DNA from: an uncultured Coriobacteriia bacterium
GTDB lineage: Bacteria; Actinomycetota; Coriobacteriia; Coriobacteriales; QAMH01
Assembly (NCBI GenBank): GCA_959608885.1
Contig: CAUHSG010000003.1
Span: forward strand, 66,470 to 130,469
DNA length: 64,000 nucleotides
Reading direction: 5' to 3'
Shown here: in pieces, positions 26,195 through 47,280 of the stretch
Numbering within the stretch: position 1 is the stretch's first letter
Layout of the letters: the number at the start of each line of letters is the position of its first letter
Program-made: the position numbers and the translations under genes
The notes under the pieces: model-generated
Database searches by the model: none
Told to the model about the DNA's origin: nothing
What the model saw: only the letters and a program-made list of their open reading frames with translations

Positions 26195-26201
26195 GAGGCG
26201 C

Positions 26202-26350: not shown

Positions 26351-26483
26351 GCTGGCCAGTAGGGGACGGAGGGCGACCAGGAGGTCTCCCCTACAGGCGC
26401 TTGACGTGTGCGCTCCGTCGTCCTGAGCGGGGCGCCGCAAGGCGCGAAGTCGAAGGACCTCACGACGGGCTGCAGCTCGATCT

Positions 26484-27275: not shown

Positions 27276-27379
27276 GTGGTGTCCTTTCCGAATATCGGTC
27301 GGTACGCGGCAGAATATAGCATGCACATGCACTTCGCGTTAGTGGAAGATGCCTGGATAAAAGGTGCTAATTGAATGTG

Positions 27380-28153: not shown

Positions 28154-28431
28154 TTGAGATCGTAGTCTCCCTTCGCGAGCTAATTATAGGTTACGAACTA
28201 CGAAGTCTCTTTGTGCAATGTGCATCATTTCGACTAAGTTCTACTCATTTGTATAACCATTCTTCCGAATTTGCGCAAGGCTTTCCAAAATCGAATGCAA
28301 TCTGCTTTCAAATCAACTTATTTCAATCTTCGAATCCATTTAAGAAATGTGGAGAACCCATGAAAATCAGGCCTCGTTGTTCCAAAGCGACGAGCGCCAT
28401 TACGAAAGTGCGCTCAGGAAAAGGAGGGAAC
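28154..28431. promoter_or_regulatory. A+T-rich divergent promoter region between the LuxR gene and the C45 hydrolase gene
   Basis: 278 nt, clearly more A+T-rich than the flanks. Contains related half-sites AATCGAATGCAATC and CAATCTTCGAATCC. No operator proven. Confidence 0.35.
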
Positions 28432-29517: not shown

Positions 29518-29581
29518 CTCAGGGAATCGGGGGCATGAGGCAATGCGCTTCGTGCCCCCTGGTACACAAGGAGGAAAAGAA

Positions 29582-30805
29582 ATGTCAGCTATGAAGCAAA
29601 TTCCCAAGTGGCGTATGGTCATTGGCATAGCCGCACTGTTCATCTCGAGCATGTGCACGCTGGGCGACATGGTCATCACCCCGATTGCTGCAAATCTCTA
29701 TGAGGTGTTTGCGGATGCGCCCGAGGCGCTTCTCAACTTCGGTATCACGGGCCCGGCACTCGTGGGCCTGCCCTTTGGTCTGCTGGCGGGCTGGCTGTGC
29801 GACCGCTTCGACAAGAAGTGGGTCATGGTCGTGGGCTTCGCCATCTTCACGTTCTCTGCGATCTTTGGCGCGGCCATCGAGAACATCTGGTACTTCGTCA
29901 TCACGCGCTGCCTGGCGACTGGCGTGGGCTGGGGCATCACCAACACCGCTGCGTTCTCCATCCTGGCGGACCTCTTCTCCGATGAGAAGAAGCATAGCCG
30001 CATGGTCGGCTTCTACAACGCGACCATGTCCATCATGGGCGCCATCCTCTCCATGGCAGCTGGCATGCTTGCTGCCTCGGGCGTATGGCAGGATGCCTTC
30101 GCCATCTACTGGATTGCTGCACCTGTGCTCATTCTCATGATCATCTTCCTGCCGTCGCTTAAGCCGACGCCCATGGAGAATGCGGAAGGCAAGGTCGAGA
30201 CGGCTGCCGAGGTCGAGGAAGAGGACAAGGGATGGATTGGCAAGATTATCCCGCTGACCATTCAGGTGTTCTTCTTCGCATTGTTCTTCTTCGTCATGCT
30301 CTACATGGTCGCCCTCTACATTGCAGATGCTGGCGTGGGTGACGAGGCCTTTGCGGGTACGGTTGCCTCGTGCATGACGCTGGCCACCATGGTCGGCTCT
30401 ATCCTGTTCGAGCCGGTCTTCTCCAAGATGAAGAACACCGTTTACATGCCCTTCATGCTCGCTATTGGCGTGATGTTCATCCTCATGGGCTTTGTCGTGA
30501 CGCCGGTCATGACCATTGCCGGCGCCATTGTCATGGGCTTCTCGTGGGCATACTACTTCTGCTACTTCTATGTTCGCGTTACCCAGCTCGTTCCCGAGAA
30601 TCGCGCGGGTTCGGCAACGGGCGTCGTGGCCTTCTCTGATGGCCTTGCGGCAACTCTGTGCTCCTACCTCGTCACGGGCCTCATGGGCGCAACCGGCATG
30701 AACTGCGTCCAGCTCTGGCCGATTTTCGGTGTCGGCACTCTGATTACGCTGGCTATCTCGGTTGTCTACTGGATGCTCACGCGCAAGAAGAGCGTTCAGC
30801 AGTAG
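29582..30805 (+). CDS. MFS transporter (paralogue 1)
   Basis: ORF trimmed to ATG 29582 behind AAGGAGG. 407 aa, ~12 helices, MFS loop WLCDRFDKKW. Confidence 0.85.
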   Translation: MSAMKQIPKWRMVIGIAALFISSMCTLGDMVITPIAANLYEVFADAPEALLNFGITGPALVGLPFGLLAGWLCDRFDKKWVMVVGFAIFTFSAIFGAAIENIWYFVITRCLATGVGWGITNTAAFSILADLFSDEKKHSRMVGFYNATMSIMGAILSMAAGMLAASGVWQDAFAIYWIAAPVLILMIIFLPSLKPTPMENAEGKVETAAEVEEEDKGWIGKIIPLTIQVFFFALFFFVMLYMVALYIADAGVGDEAFAGTVASCMTLATMVGSILFEPVFSKMKNTVYMPFMLAIGVMFILMGFVVTPVMTIAGAIVMGFSWAYYFCYFYVRVTQLVPENRAGSATGVVAFSDGLAATLCSYLVTGLMGATGMNCVQLWPIFGVGTLITLAISVVYWMLTRKKSVQQ

Positions 30806-30943
30806 GCAAGGAAAAGTTCGAGGACGCTTTACGAAAAAGGGGAGACTCCGTCTGCATGGGGTCTCCCCTTTTCACGCGTGCTGCCTGGGCGGGATGTGGC
30901 CTTGAGTGGTGGCGCGATCCGATTGGAGTAGAGGAGGCTTCGT

Positions 30944-32164
30944 ATGGCACGTGATGCTCGCATGTCATCATGGCGCATGCTTATCGCGATGGCGGCTCTG
31001 TTCGTCTCGAGCATGTGCACGATGGGTGACTTGGTGATTACGCCCAGCGCCGCTGATCTATACGTTGCGTTTGCGGATGCGCCCGAGGCGCTCATCAACT
31101 TCGGCATCACGGGCCCGGCTTTAGTGGGATTGCCATTTAGCCTGCTGGCGGGCTGGCTGTGCGACCGCTTCGACAAGAAGTGGATCATGGTCGCGGGCTT
31201 CGCCATCTTCACGTTTTCCGCGATTTTCGGTGCGGCCATCGAGAACATCTGGTACTTCGTCATCACGCGCTGCCTGGCAACCGGCATGGGCTGGGGCATC
31301 ACCAACACCGCGGCGTTCTCCATCCTGGCGGACCTCTTCTCCGACGAGAAGCAGCACGGTCGCATGGTCGGCTTCTACAACGCGGCCATGTCCATCATGG
31401 GTGCCGTGTTGTCATCCGTTGCCGGGGTGCTCGCGTCCTATGGCATCTGGCAGAACGCATTTTCGATCTACTGGATTGCCGCTCCCACGCTCGTGTTGCT
31501 CATCGTCTTCCTGCCCTCCATGAAGCCCAAGCTCATGCGTGGAGCCGATGGGCACGTCGAGACCACAGAGGAGATCAAAGCCGAGGACAAGGGCTGGTGG
31601 AAGAGCATCCTGCCGCTTAATGCCCAGGTGCTCCTGGTTGCCGTATGCTATTTCGTGCAGCTTTACATGATCTCGCTGTTCGTCGCTGATACGGGCTTGG
31701 GAGACGAGAGCTTCAGCGGCTTGCTTGCCTCATGCATGACTATGGCGTCCTGTCTGGGCTCGCTTGCATTTGGTCCCTTGTTCGCAAAGATGAGGAATGC
31801 GGTCTACTTCCCGTTCCTCATCATCATCGGACTGTGCTTCATCGTTATGGGCTGCTTCGTGGGACAGACGACGGCAGTCTTCTGCTCCCTGCTCTTCGGC
31901 TTCTCTTGGGCGTTCTACTTCTGTTACTTCTACGTGCGCGCCGCAGAGCTTGTTCCCGAGAACCGCAAGGGTGCCTCGACAGGGGTAATTGCGTTTTCTG
32001 TTGGCCTCGCCGCCTTTCTCTGCTCGTACCTCATCACGGGTCTCATGAATGTAACGCATCTGGGCTGCGCCGCGCTTTGGCCCTGCTTTGGCGCGGTGGT
32101 CATCATCGTGTGCGCCGTCTCGATGCTTTATTTCTTCACGAAGCGAAGCAGAAGGTCTTGCTAG
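30944..32164 (+). CDS. MFS transporter (paralogue 2, tandem duplicate)
   Basis: 406 aa. GAGGAGG RBS at 30931-30937. N-terminal half nearly identical to paralogue 1, C-terminal half diverged. Confidence 0.85.
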   Translation: MARDARMSSWRMLIAMAALFVSSMCTMGDLVITPSAADLYVAFADAPEALINFGITGPALVGLPFSLLAGWLCDRFDKKWIMVAGFAIFTFSAIFGAAIENIWYFVITRCLATGMGWGITNTAAFSILADLFSDEKQHGRMVGFYNAAMSIMGAVLSSVAGVLASYGIWQNAFSIYWIAAPTLVLLIVFLPSMKPKLMRGADGHVETTEEIKAEDKGWWKSILPLNAQVLLVAVCYFVQLYMISLFVADTGLGDESFSGLLASCMTMASCLGSLAFGPLFAKMRNAVYFPFLIIIGLCFIVMGCFVGQTTAVFCSLLFGFSWAFYFCYFYVRAAELVPENRKGASTGVIAFSVGLAAFLCSYLITGLMNVTHLGCAALWPCFGAVVIIVCAVSMLYFFTKRSRRSC

Positions 32165-32191
32165 CCCATAGATGCTGTCCCCTCCTTAAGG

Positions 32192-32228
32192 GTAGCCCCA
32201 CGATGCAGACATCGCGGGGCTACTTTGA
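32192..32228 (+). terminator. Hairpin terminator after the second MFS gene
   Basis: GTAGCCCCACGATG-caga-CATCGCGGGGCTAC (one mismatch) followed by TTTGA. Confidence 0.5.
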
Positions 32229-32244
32229 CCTGGAGATAGCGTTG

Positions 32245-32577
32245 CTAGGCGCTCAGGGGATGGGGGAGCATGCCAGCTGATTTAAGGTCTTCGTCAACAA
32301 GGCCACGTAGGTAGTCAGAACGTGATACGCCAAGGTCCTCGGCGCGCTTGTCCATGAGCTCAACTATGGTGACTGGCTCCTTGAAACCGACGAGCTGCAG
32401 GTCGTCGGCGAACTTGGGAGGTCGTCCTGGTTTTTTGACAGAAATTGGGCTATCGGGAATATCGCCCTGAGCGTATATTTCCTCACGTTCGGCAAGCTGC
32501 TCGCGTGTTAGGTCAAAGCGCTCCTCCATCTCCTCATCCGAGACAGGTTCAAGGTTAATTATTTGGATTAAGCTCAT
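32245..32577 (-). CDS. Ribbon-helix-helix antitoxin, BrnA-like
   Basis: 110 aa. GRPPK motif followed by a C-terminal RHH-like segment VTIVELMDKRAEDLGVSRSDYLRGLV. Lies 24 nt downstream of a small toxin-like ORF. Confidence 0.6.
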   Translation of the reverse strand: MSLIQIINLEPVSDEEMEERFDLTREQLAEREEIYAQGDIPDSPISVKKPGRPPKFADDLQLVGFKEPVTIVELMDKRAEDLGVSRSDYLRGLVDEDLKSAGMLPHPLSA

Positions 32578-32601
32578 CTAGCACCCTTCTAGTGGGAGGT
32601 C

Positions 32602-32811
32602 TCATCGCATGAAAATAACAATGCCTTCCCAGTCTTCAGCAGCGACCATTTGCATGGGGCGCCCCTTCATGTCAGGGCCAATTGCCACAATCTCACCTTC
32701 GTGCAGTGCTGTCCGCCGGCGCATTGCCATGGGATTGGTCCAGGCATGAACAATATCCTCCTTGGCTATTCCATGCTTCAGGGCATGGTCATGAATCTTG
32801 AGGCTAATCAT
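32602..32811 (-). CDS. BrnT-like small toxin (possibly C-terminally short)
   Basis: 69 aa. KHGIAKEDIVHAW and IGPDMKGRPMQMVA..GIVIF resemble the BrnT pattern (KHGVsFEEA ... iG...gR.l.vv....irIIsAR), but the ORF stops where BrnT usually continues. Confidence 0.45.
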   Translation of the reverse strand: MISLKIHDHALKHGIAKEDIVHAWTNPMAMRRRTALHEGEIVAIGPDMKGRPMQMVAAEDWEGIVIFMR

Positions 32812-32850
32812 GAAGCCCCTTATTACGTTTAACGAAATTATACATTGCTG

Positions 32851-33171
32851 TTACCTGAAGCTCAATGGCATATGCATGCCTGCTGTGGTCCACGGGGTAT
32901 CTGCGCTTGGTCTCTCAAGGGCTGCGTACGCATGTCTGCACACGAGTAGGCGTCCTGGCACCACGTCCCGTTCGGCGCGCATGACCGCCCCGTGCTTGTC
33001 GACGAAGGCGACGTCTATTGGGTAGCACATGCCAAACGTGTGCACGCTCTTGCACGGGGCTATCACGAGGATGGCTTCTCCGTCGCCCCAGTTGTGCGAG
33101 GATCCCAAAAGCCCACGGGCTCTGGCGCCAAAGCCCAGGGCGAAGACGAAGCGCATGCTCTCGCCGTTCAT
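32851..33171 (-). CDS. DUF192 domain protein, last gene of the Tad operon
   Basis: ORF trimmed to ATG 33171, which overlaps the upstream stop as ATGA (33168-33171). Core ...LVIAPCKSVHTFGMCYPIDVAFVDKHGAV... is DUF192-like. Confidence 0.7.
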   Translation of the reverse strand: MNGESMRFVFALGFGARARGLLGSSHNWGDGEAILVIAPCKSVHTFGMCYPIDVAFVDKHGAVMRAERDVVPGRLLVCRHAYAALERPSADTPWTTAGMHMPLSFR

Positions 33172-33599
33172 AGGAGTTCTCCCGGCGTATAGGGGTCTAT
33201 GGACAACGTGCATTCGTGGGTAATCATGCTCGGTGCGCTAGCAAGCGAAAGGGGCCACGGGACAAAGCCAAGGATGCAGCGATAGGTAACCATGCTCGCA
33301 AGCAGTGCCCCGGTGTCCTCGCAGGTGACGGCCACTTCCGATCCGCGCCTCGCAAACTCGATTTCGAGGGCCCCCTCGATGGCGTACAAGCGCGATTCAT
33401 GGTCGTGTTCTCCGGTTGGGGGCGATGCGCCTTCGGCGATGACGACCTGGGCTGCAATGTGGTCGAAGCGCGCACACTCCCCTGCGAAGACGAGCATGTC
33501 GATGGCGATGACGAGGACGAGCAGGATGACGGGCGTCACCACCGCGAGCTCGACGGCCATCTGCCCGCGCTCGAAGCGCGTGGGAGCTTCCTGCCACAT
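33168..33599 (-). CDS. TadE-like pseudopilin/pilus assembly protein
   Basis: ORF trimmed to ATG 33599 (MWQEAPTRFERGQMAVELAVVTPVILLVLVIAID). ERGQ-x-AVE plus a hydrophobic helix is the TadE/TadF N-terminal signature. Confidence 0.7.
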   Translation of the reverse strand: MWQEAPTRFERGQMAVELAVVTPVILLVLVIAIDMLVFAGECARFDHIAAQVVIAEGASPPTGEHDHESRLYAIEGALEIEFARRGSEVAVTCEDTGALLASMVTYRCILGFVPWPLSLASAPSMITHECTLSIDPYTPGELL

Positions 33600-33603
33600 G
33601 ACG

Positions 33604-35700
33604 TCAGCCTCCCAGACTTGCGCCAAAGCGTCCGAGCACGTCTTCGAGCCTGGCGTCGATGTCGTCGGGAACCGGCAGGTACAGCGACCCATCACCGGTG
33701 CCGAGCCCAATGTCGGCAAGGGGGATCCGGGCAATCTCCAGACCATGCTCGTCCAGGAACTCGCCAATCTCGGGTACGCTCTCGATGTCGGCCACGAGGG
33801 CATCCAAGTCCCTCATACTGATGGCCCCGTACATTTGCGCACCGAGCTTGAGCCTGCCAATCACGTCTGCAGCCGCGCCCCCGCCACGTTCGAGCACGTA
33901 TGACGTGTTGACGAGCACGGGCTTGTAGCTATCGAGGTCGGCGGGCTCTATCCCCGCGGTGGCAAGCGCCGTCTCGAACGTGGACACCGCGGCATCCGAA
34001 AGCGTGGTACCCACGACCGGTATGGCGCCAAGGGTCTTGCGAAAGCCCGACTTCAGCCCCTCGCTGCCATCGACGTACGCCTTGAGCACGCTGCCCCAGG
34101 CGCCAAAGACGGTCTTGACGGGGCCCGACAGCAGGCTCTCTGATGGAACGAGCCCTTGCGCGACATCGGCGATGACATTGCCGGCATCGTCCGCGGCATC
34201 CGGGGCCAGCGTCGCCGCCGACATGGCGATGCGTGCGGGAACAGCCGCCTCGTCATGGAGAAAGGGGACGCCTTGCACGGAGCTGCCGGGGGCCACGACG
34301 ACGCAGATGCACCCATAGCGCCCCGGCGGCTGCGGGTCGTATCGCTTGCCGGCCAGCGATCGCGCCGCATCGGAAAGCAGCGATCCGATCTCCTCGCGTT
34401 CGGCGTCAAGCTCCTGTCTGGCGGCCTGCCCGTCTTCAATGGCCTGAGCATAGTCGCGTGATGCCTCCACGAGCGCAAGGTAGTGATACTCGAACCCGTT
34501 GCTGATGGAGGTCGATGCGCTGGGTACGCGGCCAAGCGTCGTCGCGGAAAACCTGCACGTGGGGCAGCTCTGGCATGCACCCGAATCGATGTCGCAGACC
34601 GCCGCACTGCCAGAAGGCGAGCCGGCGGCGTATTCCGGGCAGCCGGTCCAGGCGTGCAGCGTACGGGTCTCGCCATTGATGGACGTGGGGTATATGCAGT
34701 CCGTGTACAACGAGGTTTCCCTGATCTGCGCAGTGTTGCGAGCGAGCTGGACGAGGTGGGGGACTTCAGATCCCGAGGCGCTTGTCTCGATGCGACCGCT
34801 CGAGACCTGGTTGAGCGCGTATGCGTAGAACTGCTTGCGGGCGATTGACTCGCCCACGCGCTCGGGCGATCCCGATGCGTATGCGCCCGGCTCGCTTGCA
34901 TACCGTGCCTGGTAGTAGGCGACTGCCCGGTTGAGGGCGACGGAGAAGCTCCAGTTGTCCGGTGACGAGAAGTATGGGTTCTTCGCGCCGGAGATGCTCG
35001 AGAGCTTTGCCGCGCGCTCGAACATGCTCATGCCCTCGTTGCCGCAATCCGCCTGCCAGGCTCGTTTTCGCGCCGCGTCCTCGCGCTGCTGCGCTTCCTG
35101 CTGGGCAACGCTTGCCTGCTGCACGCTCTCCTCTTTCGACTCGATTTCATGTGCCGCCTGCCGTGCCTGCGAGTCGTCGGGAATGGATATGTCGATTCCC
35201 TCGATGGGCACGGTGATGGCAGCGCCTGCATAGGGGATGCCGCTTGCATCGGCATTTGCCTGGATGACCTGGCCGCTGCGAAGCGCGCAGAGGGCGGGTA
35301 GTGCCTTCTGGGCGGCGTCGAGCCCACGTATGGCGGAGTCGACAAACCGGTCGCGTGTTTCGAAGACCTTCGATCCCACGTGCGCGATTTCGGCGGCGGC
35401 TCCCTGGGCTCCGGGAATGAACGCCGTGACGGCAGAGACGGCATAGACCGTGAGTCCCAGCAGCGACAGGGACAATGCGCTTGCGTCAACTACCTGACCG
35501 GCCGTCACGAATTCGGCGATAACGCCATCGGCTGCGAGGGCCCCGGCGTCGGCGACGTACTGGATCTGTCCCGATCGCGAGCCGATTGCGATGCCTCGCG
35601 TGCACGCGAGCACAAGCGCCAAGGCCACGAGGACGGCCAATGCGGCTGCAGGGGTGGTAAACCCACCCTCATGGCGCATGAAGGCTCTGCCCCACTTCAT
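33604..35700 (-). CDS. Large TadG-like Tad-associated membrane protein (~698 aa)
   Basis: ORF 33604..35871 trimmed to ATG 35700, an ATGA overlap with the upstream stop (ATG 35706 also possible). N-terminal HEGGFTTPAAALAVLVALALVLA resembles the TadE/G-like pilus-assembly N-terminus. The rest has no recognisable domain. Confidence 0.7.
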   Translation of the reverse strand: MKWGRAFMRHEGGFTTPAAALAVLVALALVLACTRGIAIGSRSGQIQYVADAGALAADGVIAEFVTAGQVVDASALSLSLLGLTVYAVSAVTAFIPGAQGAAAEIAHVGSKVFETRDRFVDSAIRGLDAAQKALPALCALRSGQVIQANADASGIPYAGAAITVPIEGIDISIPDDSQARQAAHEIESKEESVQQASVAQQEAQQREDAARKRAWQADCGNEGMSMFERAAKLSSISGAKNPYFSSPDNWSFSVALNRAVAYYQARYASEPGAYASGSPERVGESIARKQFYAYALNQVSSGRIETSASGSEVPHLVQLARNTAQIRETSLYTDCIYPTSINGETRTLHAWTGCPEYAAGSPSGSAAVCDIDSGACQSCPTCRFSATTLGRVPSASTSISNGFEYHYLALVEASRDYAQAIEDGQAARQELDAEREEIGSLLSDAARSLAGKRYDPQPPGRYGCICVVVAPGSSVQGVPFLHDEAAVPARIAMSAATLAPDAADDAGNVIADVAQGLVPSESLLSGPVKTVFGAWGSVLKAYVDGSEGLKSGFRKTLGAIPVVGTTLSDAAVSTFETALATAGIEPADLDSYKPVLVNTSYVLERGGGAAADVIGRLKLGAQMYGAISMRDLDALVADIESVPEIGEFLDEHGLEIARIPLADIGLGTGDGSLYLPVPDDIDARLEDVLGRFGASLGG

Positions 35701-36167
35701 TTCCATGCTCCAATCCACGATGCGGGCGCATAGTCGCTGCGGGCCCACTCGGGCACTGATGCGCAGCTCGCCTCGACGCGCTGCTCGATGGCTCCGTTTT
35801 CGTCGATGTCGTTCGCGAGGCCCGCGACGATGCCAAAGAGGGGCAGCGGTTCGACATGGTTGACGATGCACATGCTCGCAGCCCCGCCCTGTTCGCTCGA
35901 CCAGGTGATGTTCCAGTCTTCGTCCATGTGGAAGACTGCCACCTTGGGTATGGCGTCAAGCCTGCGTTCCACAAACGCCCGCACCGACGTCTCGTCACTC
36001 GTGTTCGTCGCCAGCAGGCGGCAGCCCTCCGCGGCCGCCGCATTCATGATGCAGCGGTCGTAGAGGAGCAGCGCCGGTTGCAGGAGCAGGCCAAAGAGGG
36101 CAAACAGCACCGGGAGCAGCACGGCCGCCTCGATGGTCGACTGACCCGATTCAGAAGAGAAGCGCAT
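35697..36167 (-). CDS. TadE-like pseudopilin/pilus assembly protein
   Basis: ORF trimmed to ATG 36167 behind GGAGGGGTGG. MRFSSESGQSTIEAAVLLPVLFALFGLLLQP is a TadE-type N-terminus. Confidence 0.75.
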   Translation of the reverse strand: MRFSSESGQSTIEAAVLLPVLFALFGLLLQPALLLYDRCIMNAAAAEGCRLLATNTSDETSVRAFVERRLDAIPKVAVFHMDEDWNITWSSEQGGAASMCIVNHVEPLPLFGIVAGLANDIDENGAIEQRVEASCASVPEWARSDYAPASWIGAWK

Positions 36168-36351
36168 CGACCACCCCTCCCGCCGTTGTGAGTGCGTGCG
36201 AGGCGCCCGCCTGTACCAGGTCGGTGACGTCGCCATTTGCGACAAAGTGCCACAAGGCCGCGAACGCGCCCATGAGTGCAATGAGCACGAGCCCCACGAG
36301 CAGGTACTCGACCGACGCCTGTCCGGCTTCCCACCTTCTCGTATACCTCAC
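36151..36351 (-). CDS. Second Flp-type prepilin-like small protein
   Basis: 66 aa. EAG-QASVEY-LLVGLVLIALMGAF fits the Flp G/XXXXEY processing motif plus a hydrophobic helix. GTG start overlaps the flp stop (GTGA, 36348-36351). Confidence 0.55.
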   Translation of the reverse strand: MRYTRRWEAGQASVEYLLVGLVLIALMGAFAALWHFVANGDVTDLVQAGASHALTTAGGVVDALLF

Positions 36352-36554
36352 AGCCCGTTTACTCCGCTCGAAATGGCCTCCCAGAGCTCGCTGATCTTGC
36401 CCCTGAACGCTGCGATGGCGATCATCGCGATGACGGCCAGCACGCCGACGAGGATGGCGTATTCGGTCGTCCCCTGACCTTCCTCGCGCAGGCAGTGCAG
36501 CCTCGTCGTGGCCCTGACGTATGCACCGATCATCTTGTCCTTGAGTTTTTGCAT
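36348..36554 (-). CDS. flp: Flp-family type IVb pilin
   Basis: 68 aa. Leader followed by G-QGTTEY-AILVGVLAVIAMIAIAAF (G/XXXXEY motif). AAGGAG RBS. Confidence 0.8.
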   Translation of the reverse strand: MQKLKDKMIGAYVRATTRLHCLREEGQGTTEYAILVGVLAVIAMIAIAAFRGKISELWEAISSGVNGL

Positions 36555-36573
36555 GTCGTCTCCTTACCGTTGG

Positions 36574-37317
36574 TCAAAAGCCTGTCTGGACAAATTGGAG
36601 AAGCACCGGCCCCATGACCAGGATGAGCATGGCGGGCAGGATGCATGTTCCCGTGGGTACGAGCAGCTTGACGGGCGCCTTGGCTATCCGACGTTCGATG
36701 GCGCCGCGCCGCTGCCTGCGAACATCGCATGAGAAGCGAGCGAGCATGTCGGCAAGAGGCGATCCGTAGTGAATGGCCTGAATCGACGTATCGGCGAAGC
36801 GCTTCAGCGCCCTTGATTTCGTGCGCGCGAAGAGCGACTCAAGTGCTTGCTGGCGCGAGGCAAGACCACTGCTCCACTCCAGGCGCGCGCCTGCAAGCTG
36901 GTGCGCCAGCACGTTGTCGAACTTGTCGCAATAGAGGTCCAGCGCGGCGTCGAAGGATAGCCCCGAGCGGATGCCCATGGCGACGATGTCTGCCATCACG
37001 TCGACCTGCTCATCGCAGGCGCTACGCAGCTCGCGGGCTGCCCGGGCGTCGAGCATGGCGGGGGCCTTGCGGGTAAGCAGGTAGGCGGTGGGCATGCCTG
37101 CGACGAGCATCCAGGGGGTCGTTGCAAACGAGATGACGAGCGCCGCAGCGCAGAACACGAGAAAGCAGAGCGACTTGTCGCGCAGGATGTCCTCGACGTC
37201 GAGTTGCCCGTGCCTTGGTGCCGCGAATGCGAGACGCGTCGTCATCAGGCAAGCGCACCGCCATGCGCACGCGCAGGCAAGGATGCAGGCGAGCAGGCGC
37301 AATGCAGCTGGAATCAT
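36574..37317 (-). CDS. tadC: TadC-like type II secretion system F-family membrane protein
   Basis: ORF trimmed to ATG 37317, one nt after the tadB stop. T2SSF-like cytoplasmic domain (GIRSGLSFDAALDL...) flanked by TM helices. Confidence 0.8.
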   Translation of the reverse strand: MIPAALRLLACILACACAWRCACLMTTRLAFAAPRHGQLDVEDILRDKSLCFLVFCAAALVISFATTPWMLVAGMPTAYLLTRKAPAMLDARAARELRSACDEQVDVMADIVAMGIRSGLSFDAALDLYCDKFDNVLAHQLAGARLEWSSGLASRQQALESLFARTKSRALKRFADTSIQAIHYGSPLADMLARFSCDVRRQRRGAIERRIAKAPVKLLVPTGTCILPAMLILVMGPVLLQFVQTGF

Positions 37318-37318
37318 G

Positions 37319-38095
37319 TCAGACCGCCTCCTCGAGGTCGACCGAGAAGTCGACGGCAAGGGCCCTGCGCACGAGCACGATGCCCGCCGCCTCAAACAGG
37401 AGCGCGAGGACGAAGAGGCACACGCCGAGCGGGGAGCTCAGAAACCCCGTGAGGTATCCGGGCGAGAAGACGGACAGTATCGCCAACAGCGCAAACGGCA
37501 TGATGGTCACGATGCGGCTCGAAAGGCGTCCCTGTGCCGTCTTGGTGCGCAAGTCATCCTTGAGCTCGGCAGTCTGCTGGAGCAGGCCCGCCACGCTTTC
37601 GAGTATGTCGGTCAGGCTGCCGCCTGACTGGTGCTGGATCTCCATCGCGACGGCGAGGTAGGCGAACTCGGATCCTCCCGTACGCTGCCGCAGCTTTTCC
37701 AGTGCCTCGTCGAAGCCCTGGCCGGCCTCGAGATCCCACACCGTGCGCTTGAGCTCGCCAGCGAGCGGCTCGCTGCAGTTGTCTGCGGCATAGCGCAATG
37801 CCATGACAAGTGACGATCCACTCTCCAGCGCCGTGCATAGCAGGCGCAGCACCTCGGGCATCCCCTGTTCCAGGGCCTCGACGCGCTTTCTATGCCGGTA
37901 TCCGCCAAGCATCCTCGAGATGGGCGTGCTTGCCAGCATCCTGCCGTAAACGCGCTCGAGGGCGCGCCTTCCCGACGAGCGCAGGATCGATCGGCTGAGG
38001 TGGACGTGATCCAAAACCAGAAGACAAGATCGGTACATTCCATAGGCCGTTGTCACGAGTGCCCCAAGCAGGAGGGCTGCACTGATTGCACCCAT
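37319..38095 (-). CDS. tadB: TadB-like type II secretion system F-family membrane protein
   Basis: ORF trimmed to ATG 38095 behind GGAGGAGGTG. T2SSF-like core (LESGSSLVMALRYAA...GQGFDEALEKL...). Confidence 0.8.
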   Translation of the reverse strand: MGAISAALLLGALVTTAYGMYRSCLLVLDHVHLSRSILRSSGRRALERVYGRMLASTPISRMLGGYRHRKRVEALEQGMPEVLRLLCTALESGSSLVMALRYAADNCSEPLAGELKRTVWDLEAGQGFDEALEKLRQRTGGSEFAYLAVAMEIQHQSGGSLTDILESVAGLLQQTAELKDDLRTKTAQGRLSSRIVTIMPFALLAILSVFSPGYLTGFLSSPLGVCLFVLALLFEAAGIVLVRRALAVDFSVDLEEAV

Positions 38096-39417
38096 TGCTC
38101 CACCTCCTCCTGCGTGGCGATGCCCATGTAGGGAAGGTCGTAAACCCAGGCGGGAACGAGACCCCATTCGTAGTGGCGGTTGCGCCTGTTCCAGCTGACG
38201 GTGGGAACAAAGCCCCCTTGGGATGCGCCGCCTTCTTCGGCATCGAGTTCGCGTCTGCCCTCGTTGCGCATGGCGATCTGCGTGATGCGTCGCATGCCGC
38301 CGGCCAGGCGGTCCTGTTGCACGATGAGGTCGAGTGCCGATGCGATCTGCTCTCTAATGATCTGAGTGGGCAGGTCCATGCCGTAGCGCACCATCATGAC
38401 AAGACGGGGTATGGCCTCGGCGGGCGAGTTGGCATGCAGCGTCGTCATCGAGCCATCGTGGCCGGTGTTCATGGCCTGGAGCATGTCGAGGGCCTCCGCG
38501 CCGCGGCATTCGCCCACGATGATGCGGTCGGGACGCATGCGCAGGGCATTCGTGACGAGGTCGCGTATGGTTACGGCGCCACGCCCCTCGGCATTTGCCA
38601 GGCGCGCCTCCAGGCGTATGACATGCGGGTGCTGGTCGAACCTGAGCTCGGCGCTGTCCTCGATCGTTATGATGCGCTCGGCGTGGGGGATGAGTCGCGA
38701 AAGCGCATTGAGAAGGGTTGTCTTGCCCCCACCTGTGCCCCCAGACACGGCGATGTTCTTGCGTGCGCGTACGGCCCAGGCAAGCAGGCGCTCCATTTCG
38801 GGGGAGAGCGCATCCATGTCCACCAGCTCGTCGAGCGTGAAGGATTGGGTTCGAAACTTCCTGATGGTGACTGACGTCCCGTCGATCGAAAGGGGCGGGA
38901 TGACGACGTTGACGCGATGTCCCTCTGGCAGACGCGCGTTTACCAGTGGGCTCTGCTCGTCGACGCGACGTCCCAATGGGGACACGATGCGATCGACGAC
39001 GAGCCGTAGCTGCTCCTCGGAATCGTAGCGCTCCGCGCTACGATAGACGCTGCCCCTGCGTTCGAAGAAGATCGCATCGGGGCCGTTGACCATTATCTCG
39101 GTGATCTCGTCGTCCTTGAGCATCTTTTCGATGGGACCCAGGCCCAGGACCATGTCAAGGGTGTGCTCGACGAGCGCGTCGCGCTCTTGCCCGGTCATGT
39201 GTCCAAAGCCATGCACGCTCAGGAGCTGGTCGATCGTGGCGGCCAGCTCGCGTCGCGCGACCTCGCGCCCCCTGGCGAGCAGCTGGGCGATGCGCTCGCT
39301 CGGGATTTCCCCGTAGAGCAGATCCCGCAGGCGCGCATGCTCCCTTTCGTATCCTGCACCCATTGCATCGGTGGAGTCGGCAACCTGGGTCTTCGTTATG
39401 TAGTCACCGAGCTTCAT
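38053..39417 (-). CDS. tadA: CpaF/TadA-family pilus assembly ATPase
   Basis: 454 aa. EIMVNGPD, Walker A SGGTGGGKTTLLNAL, Asp/His boxes (IIVGECRG, GHDGSMTTLHAN). Confidence 0.92.
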   Translation of the reverse strand: MKLGDYITKTQVADSTDAMGAGYEREHARLRDLLYGEIPSERIAQLLARGREVARRELAATIDQLLSVHGFGHMTGQERDALVEHTLDMVLGLGPIEKMLKDDEITEIMVNGPDAIFFERRGSVYRSAERYDSEEQLRLVVDRIVSPLGRRVDEQSPLVNARLPEGHRVNVVIPPLSIDGTSVTIRKFRTQSFTLDELVDMDALSPEMERLLAWAVRARKNIAVSGGTGGGKTTLLNALSRLIPHAERIITIEDSAELRFDQHPHVIRLEARLANAEGRGAVTIRDLVTNALRMRPDRIIVGECRGAEALDMLQAMNTGHDGSMTTLHANSPAEAIPRLVMMVRYGMDLPTQIIREQIASALDLIVQQDRLAGGMRRITQIAMRNEGRRELDAEEGGASQGGFVPTVSWNRRNRHYEWGLVPAWVYDLPYMGIATQEEVEQWVQSVQPSCLGHS

Positions 39418-40202
39418 GAGAAGAGCCTCCGTCTTTTTTGCGGCGTGGGGGCAAACTCGATGCCGATGCGCGGGAGCAGGCAGCTCAGCATCCTCTGGAT
39501 ATCCGGTATGGGGGCGGCCTCGCCCTCGACGAGCTCCTCGATGCGGCCGGCTTCCACCAGTGCCCCGACGCCGCCCTTGCCATCGGCAAGGGCGAAGAGC
39601 TCGTCTGCGTCAAGGGAGACGCGTGCATGCTCGAACTCGCTTCTGGGCAAGTTCGAGGACCGGTTGAGCACGTAGGCGATGCGCGCTGTGGGAATGCCGA
39701 TCCTCTGGCAGAGCTCGCCTGCCTTGATCGCCCCGTAGACCGACGAGCGCCGATGGTCCATCAGGATGATCACGAGGTCGGATGACACGAGGAGTGCCCC
39801 GGTGAGACCCGACCAGTACTGGCCGGTATCCGCAATGACGAGGTCGTAGCGATTGCGCACGTGATCCATGAGTTCGACCACGGCATCGGCGACCTCCTCT
39901 GCCACCTCGGGCAACACGGGTGCCTTGAAAAGGTCGAGTTTGGCCGAGATGGGGACGGGGTTGCATGCGGTGCCTTGCGCCAGGTTGGAAAGCGCGACGT
40001 CGAGCCCCAGCCAATAGCCCATGTCCCCAAACTGCAGGTCGCCTTCGAGAATCGCCGTCCTGATCGACTGGCGTGCCACGAGATGCCCTGCGAGAAGCGC
40101 CAGCGTGCTCTTGCCCGTGCCCCCGCTTGCCGACACCAGGGTGACGAGTGGCGCCTGGTTGCACGTGGCCGAATACGCCCGCTTGTCCACGGTGCCCATC
40201 AT
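39414..40202 (-). CDS. TadZ/CpaE-like ParA/MinD-family ATPase
   Basis: 262 aa. Deviant Walker A SASGGTGKSTLA. ATGA overlap with tadA (39414-39417). Confidence 0.8.
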   Translation of the reverse strand: MMGTVDKRAYSATCNQAPLVTLVSASGGTGKSTLALLAGHLVARQSIRTAILEGDLQFGDMGYWLGLDVALSNLAQGTACNPVPISAKLDLFKAPVLPEVAEEVADAVVELMDHVRNRYDLVIADTGQYWSGLTGALLVSSDLVIILMDHRRSSVYGAIKAGELCQRIGIPTARIAYVLNRSSNLPRSEFEHARVSLDADELFALADGKGGVGALVEAGRIEELVEGEAAPIPDIQRMLSCLLPRIGIEFAPTPQKRRRLFS

Positions 40203-40862
40203 CTAGCTCACCTGATTTGCGGCGCTGTTGCCGGGCAAGACGAAGTGGATGGTCCCACGCGCCGAGGCGGATATGAGCTCGCTCACGCTCGAGGGCGTCA
40301 CGGCGAGCGTCACCCACGAGATCTGCTTGTCTCCCGCATCGTCGGGCGTGCTCGTCTCGAGCACGAGTATGCGCTCGCCGATCATCGTGATTTCGCCCGA
40401 TGCAGCTTCGACGTAGACGTCGACGACCGAGCCCGCCCGTATGGCGCCTCCCACGGCAAGCACGTCATCGGAGGCAACGCTTGCGGCGGCAAGCCCGTCG
40501 GGTACCGTGATCCTGGATGATCCGTCACCCACGCGCTCGAGCAAGATGGGCTCGTTCACGCGAATCTCGCTCTGGGCGACGAGCCCTTCGAGTTGCTCGT
40601 GGCTCTGGGCGGCCTGGCCCTGCGGCAGGAAGTCGACGAGCCATTCCTGCACGGTTGCGTTCGACTCGTCGACGGTGCCCCCGATGGGGATTGTCTTGGT
40701 CGCGACGAGCACGGGGACACGTTCGCCCCCGTATTGCTGGATGGCGGCCGCGCGTGCCATGGATGCCTCGGATTTGATGGTCGCCGTATAGGCAAAAACG
40801 CACAATGCCGCCAGCACTCCGCAGCAGATCGCGATTGCCGTTTGCTTTCGTTGTCTCGTCAT
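40203..40862 (-). CDS. cpaB: CpaB/RcpC-like Flp pilus assembly protein (SAF domain)
   Basis: 219 aa. N-terminal TM anchor, then a SAF-like segment (VPVLVATKTIPIGGTV) and RcpC-like C-terminus. First gene of the operon. Confidence 0.85.
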   Translation of the reverse strand: MTRQRKQTAIAICCGVLAALCVFAYTATIKSEASMARAAAIQQYGGERVPVLVATKTIPIGGTVDESNATVQEWLVDFLPQGQAAQSHEQLEGLVAQSEIRVNEPILLERVGDGSSRITVPDGLAAASVASDDVLAVGGAIRAGSVVDVYVEAASGEITMIGERILVLETSTPDDAGDKQISWVTLAVTPSSVSELISASARGTIHFVLPGNSAANQVS

Positions 40863-41081
40863 GACACCTCCACGACACGTCCGTTGGAGCCGTGACTATG
40901 CAACAGGGGCGTCCGAGCCATCTACCCCCAGAACCTGTACGATTTCGGAGTTGAATCGGATCGACTTCGGATTGATTTCAGACGCGATTCCGAAAGCCCC
41001 CGTTCAGCGCAGGGGAGTGCGTTGCGTCAAGAGCACGTCCAATGCATGCGCAATTGGGGGATTCTCAAAAAATTTTTCGCA

Positions 41082-41146
41082 GGGGCCGCGTTTCCACGCG
41101 GACAACATGTCGCTGGCGGCGTTTTGCGGGGGCCGCGTTTCACGCG
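41082..41146. repeat. Two direct copies of a GC hairpin motif (probable trkA terminator region / Tad upstream region)
   Basis: GGGGCCGCGTTTCCACGCGG (41082-41101) and GGGGCCGCGTTTCACGCGG (41128-41146). On the minus strand the first is followed by AAAAATTTTTT. Confidence 0.4.
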
Positions 41147-41216
41147 GCCCGGGTTGCCGCGAAGCGGGCTGTCGGGGAGCGACCATCGAGGCGGCATCTC
41201 CCATATGCCGCGTTTC

Positions 41217-41882
41217 CTAGAGATGCCTGATGATGCTGCGGAACTCCTCCTCGGCATCGCTCTTGGTGGCGGCGATGATGGTCTCGCCGGGGTAGAGCAC
41301 CGTGTCGCCCGTGATCATCACGAACTCGTCATCGCGGATGACGGCGATGAGTTGCGTGTCATGTGAGAACGGGATATCTGCCACGCGCACGCCGTCCTTG
41401 TGACGCATCTTGGCGGGCAACTTCGTCTCGACCATCACGATGTCGCCCTCGCGTAGCGAGAACACCATGCGCATGTCACCTACGATGGCTTCCTCCTCGA
41501 CCATACGCGCGATGAGCTCGGTCGACGAGACAGGTTCGATGCCCACCTCGTGGAAGATACGGCCGTTCTTGGGGTTGTTGACGTTGGCGATGCAACGCGG
41601 GACGTTGAACGTGGTCATGGCGATCTCGCAGGCCACGAGATTCGTCTCGTCATGGCCCATGAGCGCGACGAAGAGGTCGGCGTCATCGACGCCGGCATCA
41701 AGCTGCACGGCCGAATCCGTGCCGTCGCCCTCGATGATGAGCACTTCGGGAGGCAGCGTATCGGCGAGGTGATCGATGGTCTCGCTGTCCTCCTCGATAA
41801 GCGTGATGCGATGGTTCTGTTCGAGCATCATCGAGATAAGGTATTCCGCCGTGGTCGATCCGCCGCTAATGACAATGAACAT
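41217..41882 (-). CDS. TrkA-family K+ transport regulatory protein (RCK; CeoC-like), degenerate NAD motif
   Basis: ORF trimmed to ATG 41882 (MFIVISGGSTTAEY...). RCK_N/RCK_C layout, but the GxGxxG position reads SGGSTT. Confidence 0.85.
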   Translation of the reverse strand: MFIVISGGSTTAEYLISMMLEQNHRITLIEEDSETIDHLADTLPPEVLIIEGDGTDSAVQLDAGVDDADLFVALMGHDETNLVACEIAMTTFNVPRCIANVNNPKNGRIFHEVGIEPVSSTELIARMVEEEAIVGDMRMVFSLREGDIVMVETKLPAKMRHKDGVRVADIPFSHDTQLIAVIRDDEFVMITGDTVLYPGETIIAATKSDAEEEFRSIIRHL

Positions 41883-41886
41883 GTGA

Positions 41887-42531
41887 TCAGCTCCTGATAA
41901 AGCGCGAAAGGCGACCGAAGTCATCGCGAGCCACGCAGACGATGGCGACATCGCCATCATGCAAGATGGTGTCCTGCGTGGGAAGGATGGTCTCGTCGTC
42001 ATGCTCGACGGCGACCACGCGCGCATCGTAATCCTTCTCGAGCTCGCTGCATGACATGGTCACGTCATCTTCAAAGTTGAAGGCGAAGCGCACGAGTTCA
42101 TAGCTGCCGAAGGTGTCGATGTGATGGCCGTGTCCCGATTGGATCTTCGAGAAGATTTCCTCGGCGACGAGAGTCGTTCCGCAGGCGAAGTCGAGGCCGA
42201 GCTGTGCGTAGGTCTTCTCGCGACGCGCCTCGTAGAGTCGCGCGATTACATGCGGGACCTCGTAAATGCGACGTGCGACTTCCGCAATCATGAGGTTGGC
42301 GTTATCGTTGCTCGTGACCGCTGCGATGACATCGGCTTCCTCGATGCCGGCATCCAGGAGCACGCTTTCATCAAAGCCGATTCCGCGCACGATGCGACCG
42401 TTGAAATCACGCCCGAGGTTCTTGAACGCATCGGTGGCGCGGTCGATGACCGAGACGTTGTGGCCGTCTTCGGAAAGCAGGGTCGCCAGGTGGCTTCCCA
42501 CGCGACCGCATCCCACGACGATGATGTTCAT
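41887..42531 (-). CDS. trkA: TrkA-family K+ transport regulatory protein (RCK; CeoB-like)
   Basis: 214 aa. MNIIVVGCGRVGSHLA Rossmann motif and an RCK_C-type C-terminus. Confidence 0.9.
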   Translation of the reverse strand: MNIIVVGCGRVGSHLATLLSEDGHNVSVIDRATDAFKNLGRDFNGRIVRGIGFDESVLLDAGIEEADVIAAVTSNDNANLMIAEVARRIYEVPHVIARLYEARREKTYAQLGLDFACGTTLVAEEIFSKIQSGHGHHIDTFGSYELVRFAFNFEDDVTMSCSELEKDYDARVVAVEHDDETILPTQDTILHDGDVAIVCVARDDFGRLSRFIRS

Positions 42532-42547
42532 GGCGCGCCCCTCTCGC

Positions 42548-43819
42548 CTACTGCGCGGTGATCACATCGCAACCCATGTACGGGCGCAGCACCTCCGGAA
42601 CCGTGATGGATCCGTCGGCGTTCTGGTAATTCTCGATGACGGCTGCCATAGTGCGCCCGACGGCCAGGCCGCTGCCATTGAGCGTGTGCGCGAAGTGCTT
42701 CTTGCCGTTTTCATCGGTGTACTTGATGTTGGCGCGTCGTGCCTGGAAATCGCCACAGTTGCTGCAGCTCGAAATCTCCTTGTACGCGCCATAGCTCGGC
42801 AGCCACACCTCGAGGTCGTAGGTCTGACGGGCAGAAAACCCGAGGTCACCCGTGCACAGGCTGATGACGCGATAGGGAAGCCCCAGCTCCTGCAAGATCT
42901 TCTCGGCGCAGGCGGTCATGTCCTCGAGCTCATCGTCGGATTTCTCGGGGTTGGCGAAACGCACCATCTCGACCTTGTCGAACTGGTGCACGCGAATGAT
43001 GCCACGCGTGTCGCGACCGGCGCTGCCCGCCTCCTCGCGGAAGCACGGCGTGTAGGCACAGTAGCGAATGGGCAGTTCGGCGCTGTCGAGCACCTCGTTG
43101 GCATGCAGGTTGGTGAGCATGACCTCGGCCGTGGGGATGAGATAGAGCCCCTCTGTCGTCTTGAAGAGATCTTCCTCGAACTTGGGCAGCTGGCCCGTTC
43201 CGGTGAGGGTTTCCTTGTTCGCGAGTGCAGGAACCCACCATTCGGTGGACCCCCATTTGACGTGCTCGTTGAGCATGAAGTTGATAAGCGAGCGCTCCAG
43301 ACGGGCACCGGCGCCGTGCAATGCGTAGAAGCGCGCGTGCGCGAGCTTCACGCCACGCTCGAAGTCGATGATGCCGAGCTCGGGGCCAAGGTCCCAGTGC
43401 GCTTTAGCCTCGAAGTCGAATTCGCGCGGCGTGCCCCAGCGGCGCACCTCGGGATTATCGTTCTCGTCATCGCCGATGGGCGTGTTGGGGCCGGGGATGT
43501 TGGGAATGGAGTAGGTGAGGCCGTTGAGCTCCTCCTCGATAGCCACGAGGGCGCCATCGAGGTTGTCTATCTCGTCGCCCACATTGCGCATGCGAACCTT
43601 GGCAGCCTCGGCCTCTTCGGCGTTGCCCTCCTTGAGCAGCTGGCCGATTTGCTTCGAGACGGTGTTGCGCTCGGCCTTGAGGGACTCGACCTTCTGGATG
43701 ACCTCGCGGCGTTCTTCATCGAGGCGACGAAACTCATCGTAATCCCACTTCGCGTGGCGATTCTTCAGAGCCTCTTCGATGGCTTCCGGGTTTTCGCGAA
43801 TGAAGCGAATGTCGAGCAT
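42548..43819 (-). CDS. serS: Seryl-tRNA synthetase
   Basis: ORF trimmed to ATG 43819 behind [22 protein letters not shown] opening, class II motifs ([32 protein letters not shown]). Confidence 0.93.
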
Positions 43820-43934
43820 TGTTCCTCCTGTGCGTATGCGCGTCATGCCGTTCGAAATGTGTTGCGAGCAAGTATACCTCTCACGGCGCGTTTTGCGGTA
43901 CCATGCGACCCGTGACTTTTAGCTGGGAGAGAGT

Positions 43935-44132
43935 ATGTTCGACGAATATTTCGCATACTTTGGTCTGACGGGGGGCGTTCTCCTCATCATCGGCATTGGC
44001 TTGCTCCTCTTTCTGTTGATCGCCATCATTCTCGAGCGGCGCACCAAGCTGCTCTTTCCCGAGCGGCACAAGCCCAAGTCGAACGCAGATGACGATTTTC
44101 TGTCCTTTGACGATGACGAGGATGAAGACTGA
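43935..44132 (+). CDS. Small membrane protein with acidic tail (hypothetical)
   Basis: 65 aa. One long hydrophobic helix followed by DDDFLSFDDDEDED. GGGAGAG upstream. Confidence 0.45.
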   Translation: MFDEYFAYFGLTGGVLLIIGIGLLLFLLIAIILERRTKLLFPERHKPKSNADDDFLSFDDDEDED

Positions 44133-44189
44133 GTCTCCGGGTACACTTAACCCGACCCGTGCATGACGAGCCAAGCAAAGGAGCACGAC

Positions 44190-44585
44190 ATGATTAGAAA
44201 GCGCCTCATCGTATGCCTCATCGCAGCGGTCATGTCCTGCACGTGTCTGCTCACGTTCGCGGCATGCGGTTCGGCGGATGCCAACAACCTCGTGGGCGAG
44301 TGGAAGATCAAGGACACGGACGTTACGGTCGTCTTCTCGGGAGACAAGTTCAAGCTTGTTGGCAATACCTTCGACTACTCGGTCGATTCTGGTGCTAAGA
44401 CCATCACCTACAAATCGGGTGATGCGACGGGCAGCGCGAAGTACAGCTTCAGCGACAACGGCCAGCAGCTCACGCTCGAGGAGAGCGATGGCGTTGGCGG
44501 GACGAAGACCACCGTGTTCGACAAGGTTTCAAACGATGGCAATGCCGAACCGTCGGCAAATGGCGTCGTAGCCGAAGGTGAGTAG
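44190..44585 (+). CDS. Small lipoprotein (hypothetical)
   Basis: ORF trimmed to ATG 44190 behind AAAGGAG. Signal peptide with lipobox LTFAAC. Confidence 0.65.
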   Translation: MIRKRLIVCLIAAVMSCTCLLTFAACGSADANNLVGEWKIKDTDVTVVFSGDKFKLVGNTFDYSVDSGAKTITYKSGDATGSAKYSFSDNGQQLTLEESDGVGGTKTTVFDKVSNDGNAEPSANGVVAEGE

Positions 44586-44649
44586 GTTTCGCGTGCGGTG
44601 TTTCGGCATCGCACGACGAGAGCGGTACAATACATGCATGCGAGCGAGT

Positions 44650-44750
44650 GCGTCGCATGGGCTTGGGCGGCATCATGTCCCGAACCTGGTCAGGTCCGGG
44701 AGGAAGCAGCCATAAGGGGCCTCTGGTGGGCGCCCAAGTCCATACGGCGC
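44650..44750 (+). ncRNA. ffs: Small bacterial SRP RNA (4.5S-type)
   Basis: Conserved domain IV core CCTGGTCAGGTCCGGGAGGAAGCAGCC (44685-44711). Closing helix GGGCTTGGGCG (44659-44669) pairs with CGCCCAAGTCC (44731-44741). Typical location upstream of dnaX-ybaB-recR. Ends approximate. Confidence 0.75.
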
Positions 44751-44757
44751 ACTTCTC

Positions 44758-45429: not shown

Positions 45430-45435
45430 GGATTC

Positions 45436-47271: not shown

Positions 47272-47280
47272 GGAGCCACG

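Follow-up and report, generated by a model that had tools for sequence, protein, structure and literature searches.

On the minus strand of the 64,000-nucleotide stretch of Coriobacteriia DNA that was analyzed here (hereafter, the window), positions 32851-40862 are occupied by eleven consecutive, tightly packed genes that very likely constitute a functional Tad/Flp (type IVc) pilus operon of a monoderm, namely, an uncultured but abundant Coriobacteriia bacterium of the gut. The gene order is cpaB, tadZ-like, tadA, tadB, tadC, flp1, flp2, tadE1, a gene for a 698-amino acid (aa) TadG-like protein, tadE2 and a DUF192 gene; the listing of the open reading frames (ORFs) and the Pfam and NCBIfam scans agree on this order and on the identities of the genes, as claimed in an earlier note on this DNA. 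Four of the junctions are 4-nt overlaps, all of them also called in that note and present in the sequence: ATGA at 39417-39414 (tadZ/tadA), GTGA at 36351-36348 (flp1/flp2), ATGA at 35700-35697 (tadE1/698-aa gene) and ATGA at 33171-33168 (tadE2/DUF192). The six other junctions measure 0, -43, +1, +19, -17 and +4 nt. The cpaB stop codon abuts the tadZ-like start (TAGATG); tadB starts 43 nt inside the end of tadA, behind a strong AGGAGG ribosome-binding site; tadC starts 1 nt past the tadB stop; flp1 has a ribosome-binding site of its own (AAGGAG); and tadE1 overlaps flp2 by 17 nt. Such dense packing is common in operons and thus indicates organization rather than anything exceptional; from this layout, we infer translational coupling and co-transcription of the eleven genes.

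The core of the assembly machinery is readily recognizable. The product of the first gene, cpaB/rcpC-like (40203-40862; 219 aa), consists of an N-terminal membrane helix (hydrophobic segment at residues 9-27) followed by SAF and RcpC domains and matches NCBIfam TIGR03177 with 93.7 bits (cut-off 71), Pfam RcpC (1.5e-11) and Pfam SAF (9.5e-9). The tadZ-like gene (39414-40202; 262 aa) encodes a ParA/MinD-type ATPase with a Walker A-like GGTGKS motif at residue 27 and no receiver-like N-terminal domain; it matches Pfam AAA_31 with 29.2 bits (cut-off 27) and, more weakly, CbiA, ParA and MinD. The secretion ATPase encoded by tadA/cpaF (38053-39417; 454 aa) matches Pfam T2SSE (2.1e-63) and, with 320 bits against a cut-off of 373, TIGR03819, and retains the complete set of motifs, that is, Walker A (GGTGGGKT), the Asp box (ITIEDSAE), Walker B (RIIVGECR) and the His box (GHDGSMTTLH). 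The genes for the platform proteins TadB (37319-38095; 258 aa, with the start as called in metagenome assemblies) and TadC (36574-37317; 247 aa, with three hydrophobic segments) adjoin tadA, and both products match Pfam T2SSF (4.1e-21 and 2.5e-15, respectively), above the cut-off of 25.2 bits. Altogether, CpaB, TadA, TadB, TadC and TadE1 score above curated cut-offs, which supports the identification of the locus as a Tad/Flp operon. The locus contains neither a secretin gene nor one for TadD, in keeping with a Gram-positive envelope.

Prepilin-like proteins and their processing

Four genes of the operon encode proteins with a prepilin-type processing site. The presumed major prepilin, Flp1 (36348-36554; 68 aa), was recognized by its size and by this site and contains a 26-aa leader, the site EEG|QGTTEY and a hydrophobic helix. 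The second small pilin-like protein, Flp2 (36151-36351; 66 aa), starts with GTG, carries the site EAG|QASVEY and has a conserved C-terminal ...SHA...GG..DALLF motif; thus, both pilin candidates indeed possess the G/XXXXEY site that had been ascribed to them. The pseudopilins TadE1 (35697-36167; 156 aa) and TadE2 (33168-33599; 143 aa) carry the sites ESG|QSTIEA and ERG|QMAVEL, respectively. In alignments of orthologs, all four families share G(-1), Q(+1) and E(+5), with a hydrophobic helix after the site. For Flp1, G(-1), Q(+1), E(+5) and Y(+6) are conserved across 11 species, in which the leader is variable whereas the mature part (QGTTEYAILVGVLAVIAM...) is almost invariant, a signature of a cleaved prepilin. 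Flp2, which is conserved in all 12 loci that reach flp2 and is called as a gene in six assemblies, shows a weak match to Pfam TadE (E = 0.007); judging from its sequence, it is a distinct, conserved family of small pilin-like proteins. TadE1 matches Pfam TadE at 1.6e-9 (38.1 bits, cut-off 22.9), with Q(+1), E(+5), A(+7) and P(+11) invariant; TadE2 scores 18.4 bits, under the same cut-off, and in nine species displays the same N-terminal Q/E/A/P pattern as TadE1.

In one species, Collinsella sp. L014, Ala replaces Gly at position -1 (SA|Q...) in all four prepilin-like proteins (genes at 12746-12958, 13455-13700, 13747-14223 and 16314-16802); all other species have Gly(-1) in all four, except for a doubtful N-terminus of TadE2 in L005. 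This concerted replacement points to one shared processing enzyme that would read all four cleavage sites and co-evolve with them.

Among 22 small-pilin orthologues, 15 match Pfam Class_IIIsignal and 12 match the actinobacterial DUF4244, in all cases under the cut-off, and the Flp1 of the window has sub-threshold matches to these two models alone. Gln is found at +1 in all four prepilin-like proteins, and among the Pfam models, the small pilins most commonly match that of the archaeal class III signal peptide (PF04021) rather than Flp_Fap. Archaeal EppA-dependent pilins likewise have Gln at +1, which is converted to pyroglutamate.

The earlier note drew attention to the lack of a prepilin peptidase gene at the locus. 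The absence itself was borne out by several searches. No GxGDxK motif of A24 peptidases in a membrane context was found in the six frames of the window, and a tblastn search with CpaA of Sinorhizobium meliloti (plasmid pSymA) as the query retrieved nothing from the window; A24 peptidases diverge too fast for this query, which matches its alphaproteobacterial relatives alone, and no closer query from Coriobacteriia was obtained. Pfam scans of ten ORFs of the window, including the large ones with multiple membrane spans, identified the families MFS, CitMHS and FtsX but no A24; the DedA/VTT-like ORF at 44758-45429 is not an A24 peptidase according to the precomputed Pfam annotation, and a 218-aa membrane ORF at 23890-24546 has neither a family match nor a GxGD motif. 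The precomputed Pfam annotation of the neighbouring genes includes no A24, and the same holds for ~10 kb and ~7 kb past the ends of the window. The peptidase searches thereby covered ~81 kb around the locus in the window species, and the motif search took in the window and 17 loci; neither this search nor tblastn detected an A24 peptidase within 10 kb of the locus in 13 related species and in the assembly GCA_965326035.1. A GGGDAKLL-like match of 8 residues in L014 was rejected because it belongs to an ORF for an unrelated soluble protein of 443 aa that contains a P-loop (GESGAGKST).

The weight that the note had placed on this absence is unwarranted. Actinobacterial tad loci typically lack tadV (Angelov et al. 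2015, PMC4322843): in Micrococcus luteus, a distant tadV (Mlut_05160) is needed for Flp pili (PMC4322843), and in Bifidobacterium, tadV is consistently located outside the tad cluster, and twelve species reportedly have no tadV homologue whatsoever (PMC13091076). Similarly, in the Tad model of MacSyFinder, tadV is a "loner" that may be encoded apart from the other genes (PMC6668835). In the light of these precedents, a locus without a peptidase is expected in Actinobacteria and is no anomaly, and the suggestion in the note that the enzyme is encoded elsewhere or has been replaced was reasonable.

The 698-aa protein and the DUF192 protein

The largest protein encoded in the operon, a membrane-anchored protein of 698 aa (33604-35700), begins with what looks like a TadG-type N-terminus: the first ~60 residues include EGGFTTP, a helix and then SRSGQIQYVADAGALAA. 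A second hydrophobic segment is located at ~residues 70-96. The protein from the window has no match in Pfam or NCBIfam; PF13400 ("Tad") is matched weakly by 14 of its 64 homologues (best E = 1.3e-4), and in an hhalign comparison with a TadG-related protein, residues 6-59 alone were aligned (E = 7.5e-4, probability 25%). The label "tadG-like" in the earlier note is, at most, appropriate for the first ~60 residues but not for the rest of the protein: the remaining ~640 residues match nothing and are new. The confident AlphaFold2 (AF2) model (predicted local distance difference test (pLDDT) 86, predicted template modelling score (pTM) 0.73) consists of very long helices (residues 16-93, 99-153, 177-220 and 403-450) and mixed alpha/beta domains. 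This model has no fold match in the PDB (best E = 0.69), and the sequence profile matches no PDB entry, save for a marginal ESAT-6-like helical hairpin (E = 0.005). The family is small, with 495 cluster-50 representatives among 1.84 billion and is invariably linked to the locus; D218, C219, H349, C354, C379 and C382 are invariant. This pattern, with a C-x-x-C motif and additional Cys and His residues, is more suggestive of a metal site or of disulfides than of a protease triad.

The operon's final gene (32851-33171) encodes a DUF192/UPF0127 protein of 106 aa, which, when scanned as a 120-aa ORF, matches Pfam PF02643 with 29.2 bits (cut-off 27); the domain is carried by 23 of 26 homologues. No PDB match was found by sequence. 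In contrast, with the AF2 model (pLDDT 80) as the query, the top Foldseek matches are the DUF192 crystal structures 3m7a and 3pjy (probability 1.00; template modelling (TM) score 0.59-0.61, root mean square deviation about 3 A). The protein contains neither a signal peptide nor a hydrophobic 19-mer and thus is probably cytoplasmic. A DUF192 gene is located near the 3' end of the tad operon also in Bulleidia extructa and Helcococcus ovis (PMC12786226), and no other literature on DUF192 with Flp, or on COG1430, was found. The family is not Tad-specific because a soil actinobacterial DUF192 gene adjoins ychF and rsmI instead of tad genes.

These two proteins are the candidates in an alternative account of prepilin maturation, in which the lineage has no A24 peptidase and the four G|Q-x-x-x-E proteins are matured by an enzyme encoded in the operon itself, the 698-aa protein or, less plausibly, the DUF192 protein. 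Such an account could draw on the failure to find an A24 peptidase in ~81 kb around the locus and within 10 kb of it in 14 other species, on the twelve Bifidobacterium species without a tadV homologue (PMC13091076), and on the locus-linked 698-aa family itself, with its invariant D218, C219, H349, C354, C379 and C382 and no known fold. Nevertheless, we consider it highly improbable. A tad locus without tadV is the documented norm in Actinobacteria, and the need for a distant tadV has been demonstrated (PMC4322843); the 698-aa protein bears no resemblance to known peptidases, and its C-x-x-C and Cys/His pattern is unlike a protease triad; and in Bulleidia extructa, DUF192 and tadV share an operon (PMC12786226), so that DUF192 is no substitute for TadV. 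The broader proposition, that Coriobacteriia with this operon lack A24 peptidases entirely and that a new enzyme, most plausibly the 698-aa protein, cuts all four prepilin-like proteins, appears still harder to credit.

Conservation, divergence and borders of the operon

A scan with TadA, with one genome per species, identified 13 Coriobacteriia species represented by metagenome-assembled genomes (MAGs), with TadA 53-77% identical to that of the window; the species of the window is not among them. The genomes come from the human gut, the rumen and the faeces of horses, and one of the species is labelled Collinsella. CpaB is 77-83% identical in the seven closest species and 36-64% identical in the rest. 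When all eleven products were compared by tblastn, the same eleven genes were found in the same order in the ten MAG species whose contigs span the locus; the remaining loci (L011, L012 and L015) are cut by contig ends and are collinear as far as they run, and the NCBI assembly GCA_965326035.1 shows the same arrangement. Thus, the gene order described in the earlier note recurs in every sufficiently complete locus of these species and is retained down to 53% TadA identity. Against the seven closest species, all genes diverge most at codon position 3, then 1, then 2, including the short flp2 (0.31/0.20/0.49 at positions 1/2/3), which implies that all eleven are protein-coding and evolve under purifying selection.

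Lineages differ in the accessory end of the operon. In GCA_965326035.1 (L028), a more distant relative, the region 12181-13951 contains extra genes for proteins of 187 aa and 125 aa around DUF192, after a tadE2-like gene for a 146-aa protein, and TadZ is 597 aa long, with an N-terminal extension; in L014, TadZ consists of 552 aa.

Within the species, nine independent metagenome assemblies share the 8.4 kb of operon plus spacer with an identity of at least 99.94% and without indels, and an identical CpaB is encoded on 758 contigs, the longest of 2,009,043 bp. In the window and six further assemblies, none of the eleven reading frames is disrupted. In three assemblies (L001, L002 and L003), a G-to-A change at window position 36250 converts the highly conserved Trp34 of flp2 into a stop codon (TGG->TGA) and truncates flp2, which accounts for this gene not being called in these assemblies. 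One could take this nonsense allele, along with the lack of a peptidase gene nearby, as a sign that the locus is decaying and has lost the ability to produce pili. Of all the alternatives considered here, this one has the least going for it, given the intact frames in the window and the six assemblies, the intact catalytic motifs of TadA, the coding-type divergence in every gene and the preservation of the gene order to 53% TadA identity. The earlier note had named frameshifts as the mark of a decayed locus; there is none in the nine assemblies. The locus is intact and widespread, and decay is excluded for practical purposes.

The operon differs sharply from its surroundings in the rate of divergence. 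The segment 32851-40997 is 69-76% identical in DNA sequence to sister species, compared with 87-96% for the flanks (41218-49032 and 24001-26199); the third-position divergence is 0.45-0.56 in the tad genes versus 0.20-0.26 in serS and trkA; and the GC content is 0.63-0.65 in the operon versus 0.56-0.60 nearby. Such an island of divergence suggests allele exchange by recombination or long-standing diversifying selection, which is common for exposed structures.

Upstream, the operon is separated from trkA by a spacer of 354 nt. In the alignment with five sister species, conservation is confined to the last ~135 nt before cpaB (40863-40997, minus strand), which end with a GGAGG ribosome-binding site and presumably comprise the operon promoter and the 5' leader. 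The consensus scan matched no convincing sigma-70 promoter upstream of the operon, and the Rfam search found no riboswitch or other RNA family near or upstream of it; elsewhere in the window, Rfam matches are a bacterial small signal recognition particle (SRP) RNA at 44654-44749 (66.6 bits) and a tRNA gene at 63387-63469. A hairpin followed by a T run after trkA (41078-41090, minus strand), a match in the consensus scan that is terminator-like by pattern and is not evidence of function, may mark the upstream boundary of the operon. The distal spacer (41068-41216), which is not conserved in sister species, also contains four copies of a motif that includes GAAACGCGGC on the operon strand and a perfect 9-bp hairpin at 41130-41150; these may represent a terminator or a repeat element. 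In the sister species L007, a 6.5-kb insertion (2077-8554) separates trkA from cpaB and, judging from the translated ORFs alone, carries genes for TetR-like regulators, a Cys-rich Fe-S-like protein, an FAD-oxidoreductase-like protein and others, but no pilus genes. Apparently, the junction between trkA and cpaB is a hot spot for insertions.

Downstream of the DUF192 gene lie a gene for a weakly matching BrnT-like toxin (32811-32602) and one for a 110-aa partner (32577-32245). This pair has a promoter-like site of its own (32865-32837) and is missing in sister species, and thus is located outside the operon. The ~6.6-kb block 26200-32850 is an insertion relative to the sister species L004-L008, in which the distance from the end of DUF192 to the homologue of window position 26199 ranges from ~100 nt (L005, L006) to 1.8 kb (L004). 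In addition to the toxin pair, the block holds tandem paralogues of an MFS transporter (30944-32164 and 29543-30805), a gene for a 361-aa protein without a Pfam match, a GerE/LuxR regulator and a DUF169 gene.

Proposed function and relation to known Tad systems

The following scheme is consistent with these observations. A promoter in the conserved ~135 nt before cpaB would drive a single transcript, on which the close packing and the 4-nt overlaps of the genes would let ribosomes move from gene to gene. Flp1, as the major pilin, Flp2, TadE1 and TadE2 would enter the membrane via their class III signal peptides, and a chromosomally distant A24 (TadV-type) peptidase would cut after Gly(-1) to leave a mature N-terminus of the form Q-x-x-x-E. 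TadA, acting on the TadB/TadC platform and placed by the TadZ-like ATPase, would then polymerize Flp1 into a thin fibre, with the TadE-type minor pilins priming its assembly. CpaB, the 698-aa protein and the cytoplasmic DUF192 protein would be conserved accessory parts. The fibre most likely would attach to host or other surfaces.

Several observations weigh against this interpretation. The TadV-type A24 peptidase was not found around the locus, and its location elsewhere on the chromosome is deduced from the actinobacterial precedents. The Flp1 and Flp2 proteins of the window have no match to Pfam Flp_Fap (PF04964) at E <= 0.1, and among the 22 small-pilin orthologues, a single one matches this model, weakly. 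The small pilins conform to the definition of Flp in size and motif but not in terms of the Pfam match. The hidden Markov model (HMM) matches of the TadZ-like protein and TadE2 are weak. Finally, the nonsense allele in three assemblies indicates that flp2 is dispensable in some strains.

An adhesive role is plausible by analogy with Bifidobacterium, in which the Tad pili of B. breve reportedly serve colonization. The principal functional alternative to an adhesin is a pilus for DNA uptake (competence), as in Micrococcus luteus, in which the tad genes and the distant tadV are needed for natural transformation (PMC4322843); from sequence alone, an adhesive Tad pilus cannot be told from a DNA-binding one. 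We nonetheless regard a competence function as unlikely. According to the annotation of the neighbouring genes, there is no comEA/comEC-type gene in the window or beside the locus in any relative, and the locus diverges far faster than its flanks, a pattern typical of exposed structures that face the host or phages. In addition, the Tad pili of B. breve are said to be the only ones functionally tested in a gut actinobacterium, with colonization as the reported role.

Coriobacteriia are common gut residents, the surface structures of which are almost unstudied, and Tad pili are reported colonization factors in Bifidobacterium; given this combination, the locus is a reasonable candidate for a determinant of adhesion or persistence. 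A full-text literature search retrieved no paper on Tad pili in Coriobacteriia. The locus offers handles on Gram-positive Tad biology: a family of ~700-aa membrane proteins that always accompanies the system and has no confident family or structure match and, second, a DUF192 gene that recurs at the ends of Tad operons in two phyla. Furthermore, the concerted change from Gly to Ala at the cleavage sites in one genus could be used to study the specificity of the peptidase.

One of the closest known systems is the single-membrane Tad of gut actinobacteria, which, like the locus described here, includes no secretin. The present locus adds to that system the leading cpaB, flp2, the 698-aa protein, the family of which has no known relatives, the second TadE-type gene and the terminal DUF192 gene and, unlike it, combines all eleven genes in one unit. 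The tad-1/tad-2 loci of M. luteus similarly encode Flp pilins with G/XXXXEY and TadE/F-like minor pilins with G/XXXXE, with tadV located elsewhere (PMC4322843). However, the M. luteus genes form two islands without TadZ and function in natural transformation (PMC4322843), whereas the present genes form a single operon that includes a tadZ-like gene and is not known to be linked to competence.

With the double-membrane prototypes, tad of Aggregatibacter actinomycetemcomitans and cpa of Caulobacter crescentus, the locus shares TadA/CpaF, TadB/TadC, TadZ/CpaE, RcpC/CpaB and Flp, as well as TadE/TadF pseudopilins processed at G/XXXXE. The prototypes additionally encode TadV/CpaA within the locus, a secretin (RcpA/CpaC), TadD and RcpB, and the pilins in Coriobacteriia differ from theirs in scoring under the threshold of Pfam Flp_Fap and in having Gln at +1 throughout. 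Among Gram-positive bacteria, the 13-gene operon of Bulleidia extructa PP_925 (Erysipelotrichales) resembles the present one in encoding two small pilins, TadE/F/G-type proteins and, near the 3' end, DUF192 (PMC12786226), the model of which resembles 3pjy and 3m7a (PMC12786226), the same structures as those matched here. This operon from Firmicutes differs in having tadV as the first gene and a gene for a coiled-coil protein as the last one, and apparently was acquired horizontally; the 698-aa family has not been reported for it (PMC12786226).

The tad locus of plasmid pACHL01 of Pseudarthrobacter chlorophenolicus shares with the Coriobacteriia operon flp, tadE, a TadG-related gene, cpaB, a tadZ-like gene, cpaF (54% identity between the TadA proteins) and two T2SSF genes, with no annotated peptidase. 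In pACHL01, by contrast, the pilin genes are located ahead of the assembly genes, DUF192 is missing, and the TadG-related protein, of 327 aa, aligns with residues 6-59 of the 698-aa protein alone. A 695-aa protein from the same locus was compared with the 698-aa protein as a potential relative and proved unrelated. Taken together, these comparisons show a Tad/Flp operon of the ordinary type, in which the novelty lies in a few lineage-specific accessory genes and which does not overturn the current understanding of Tad systems.

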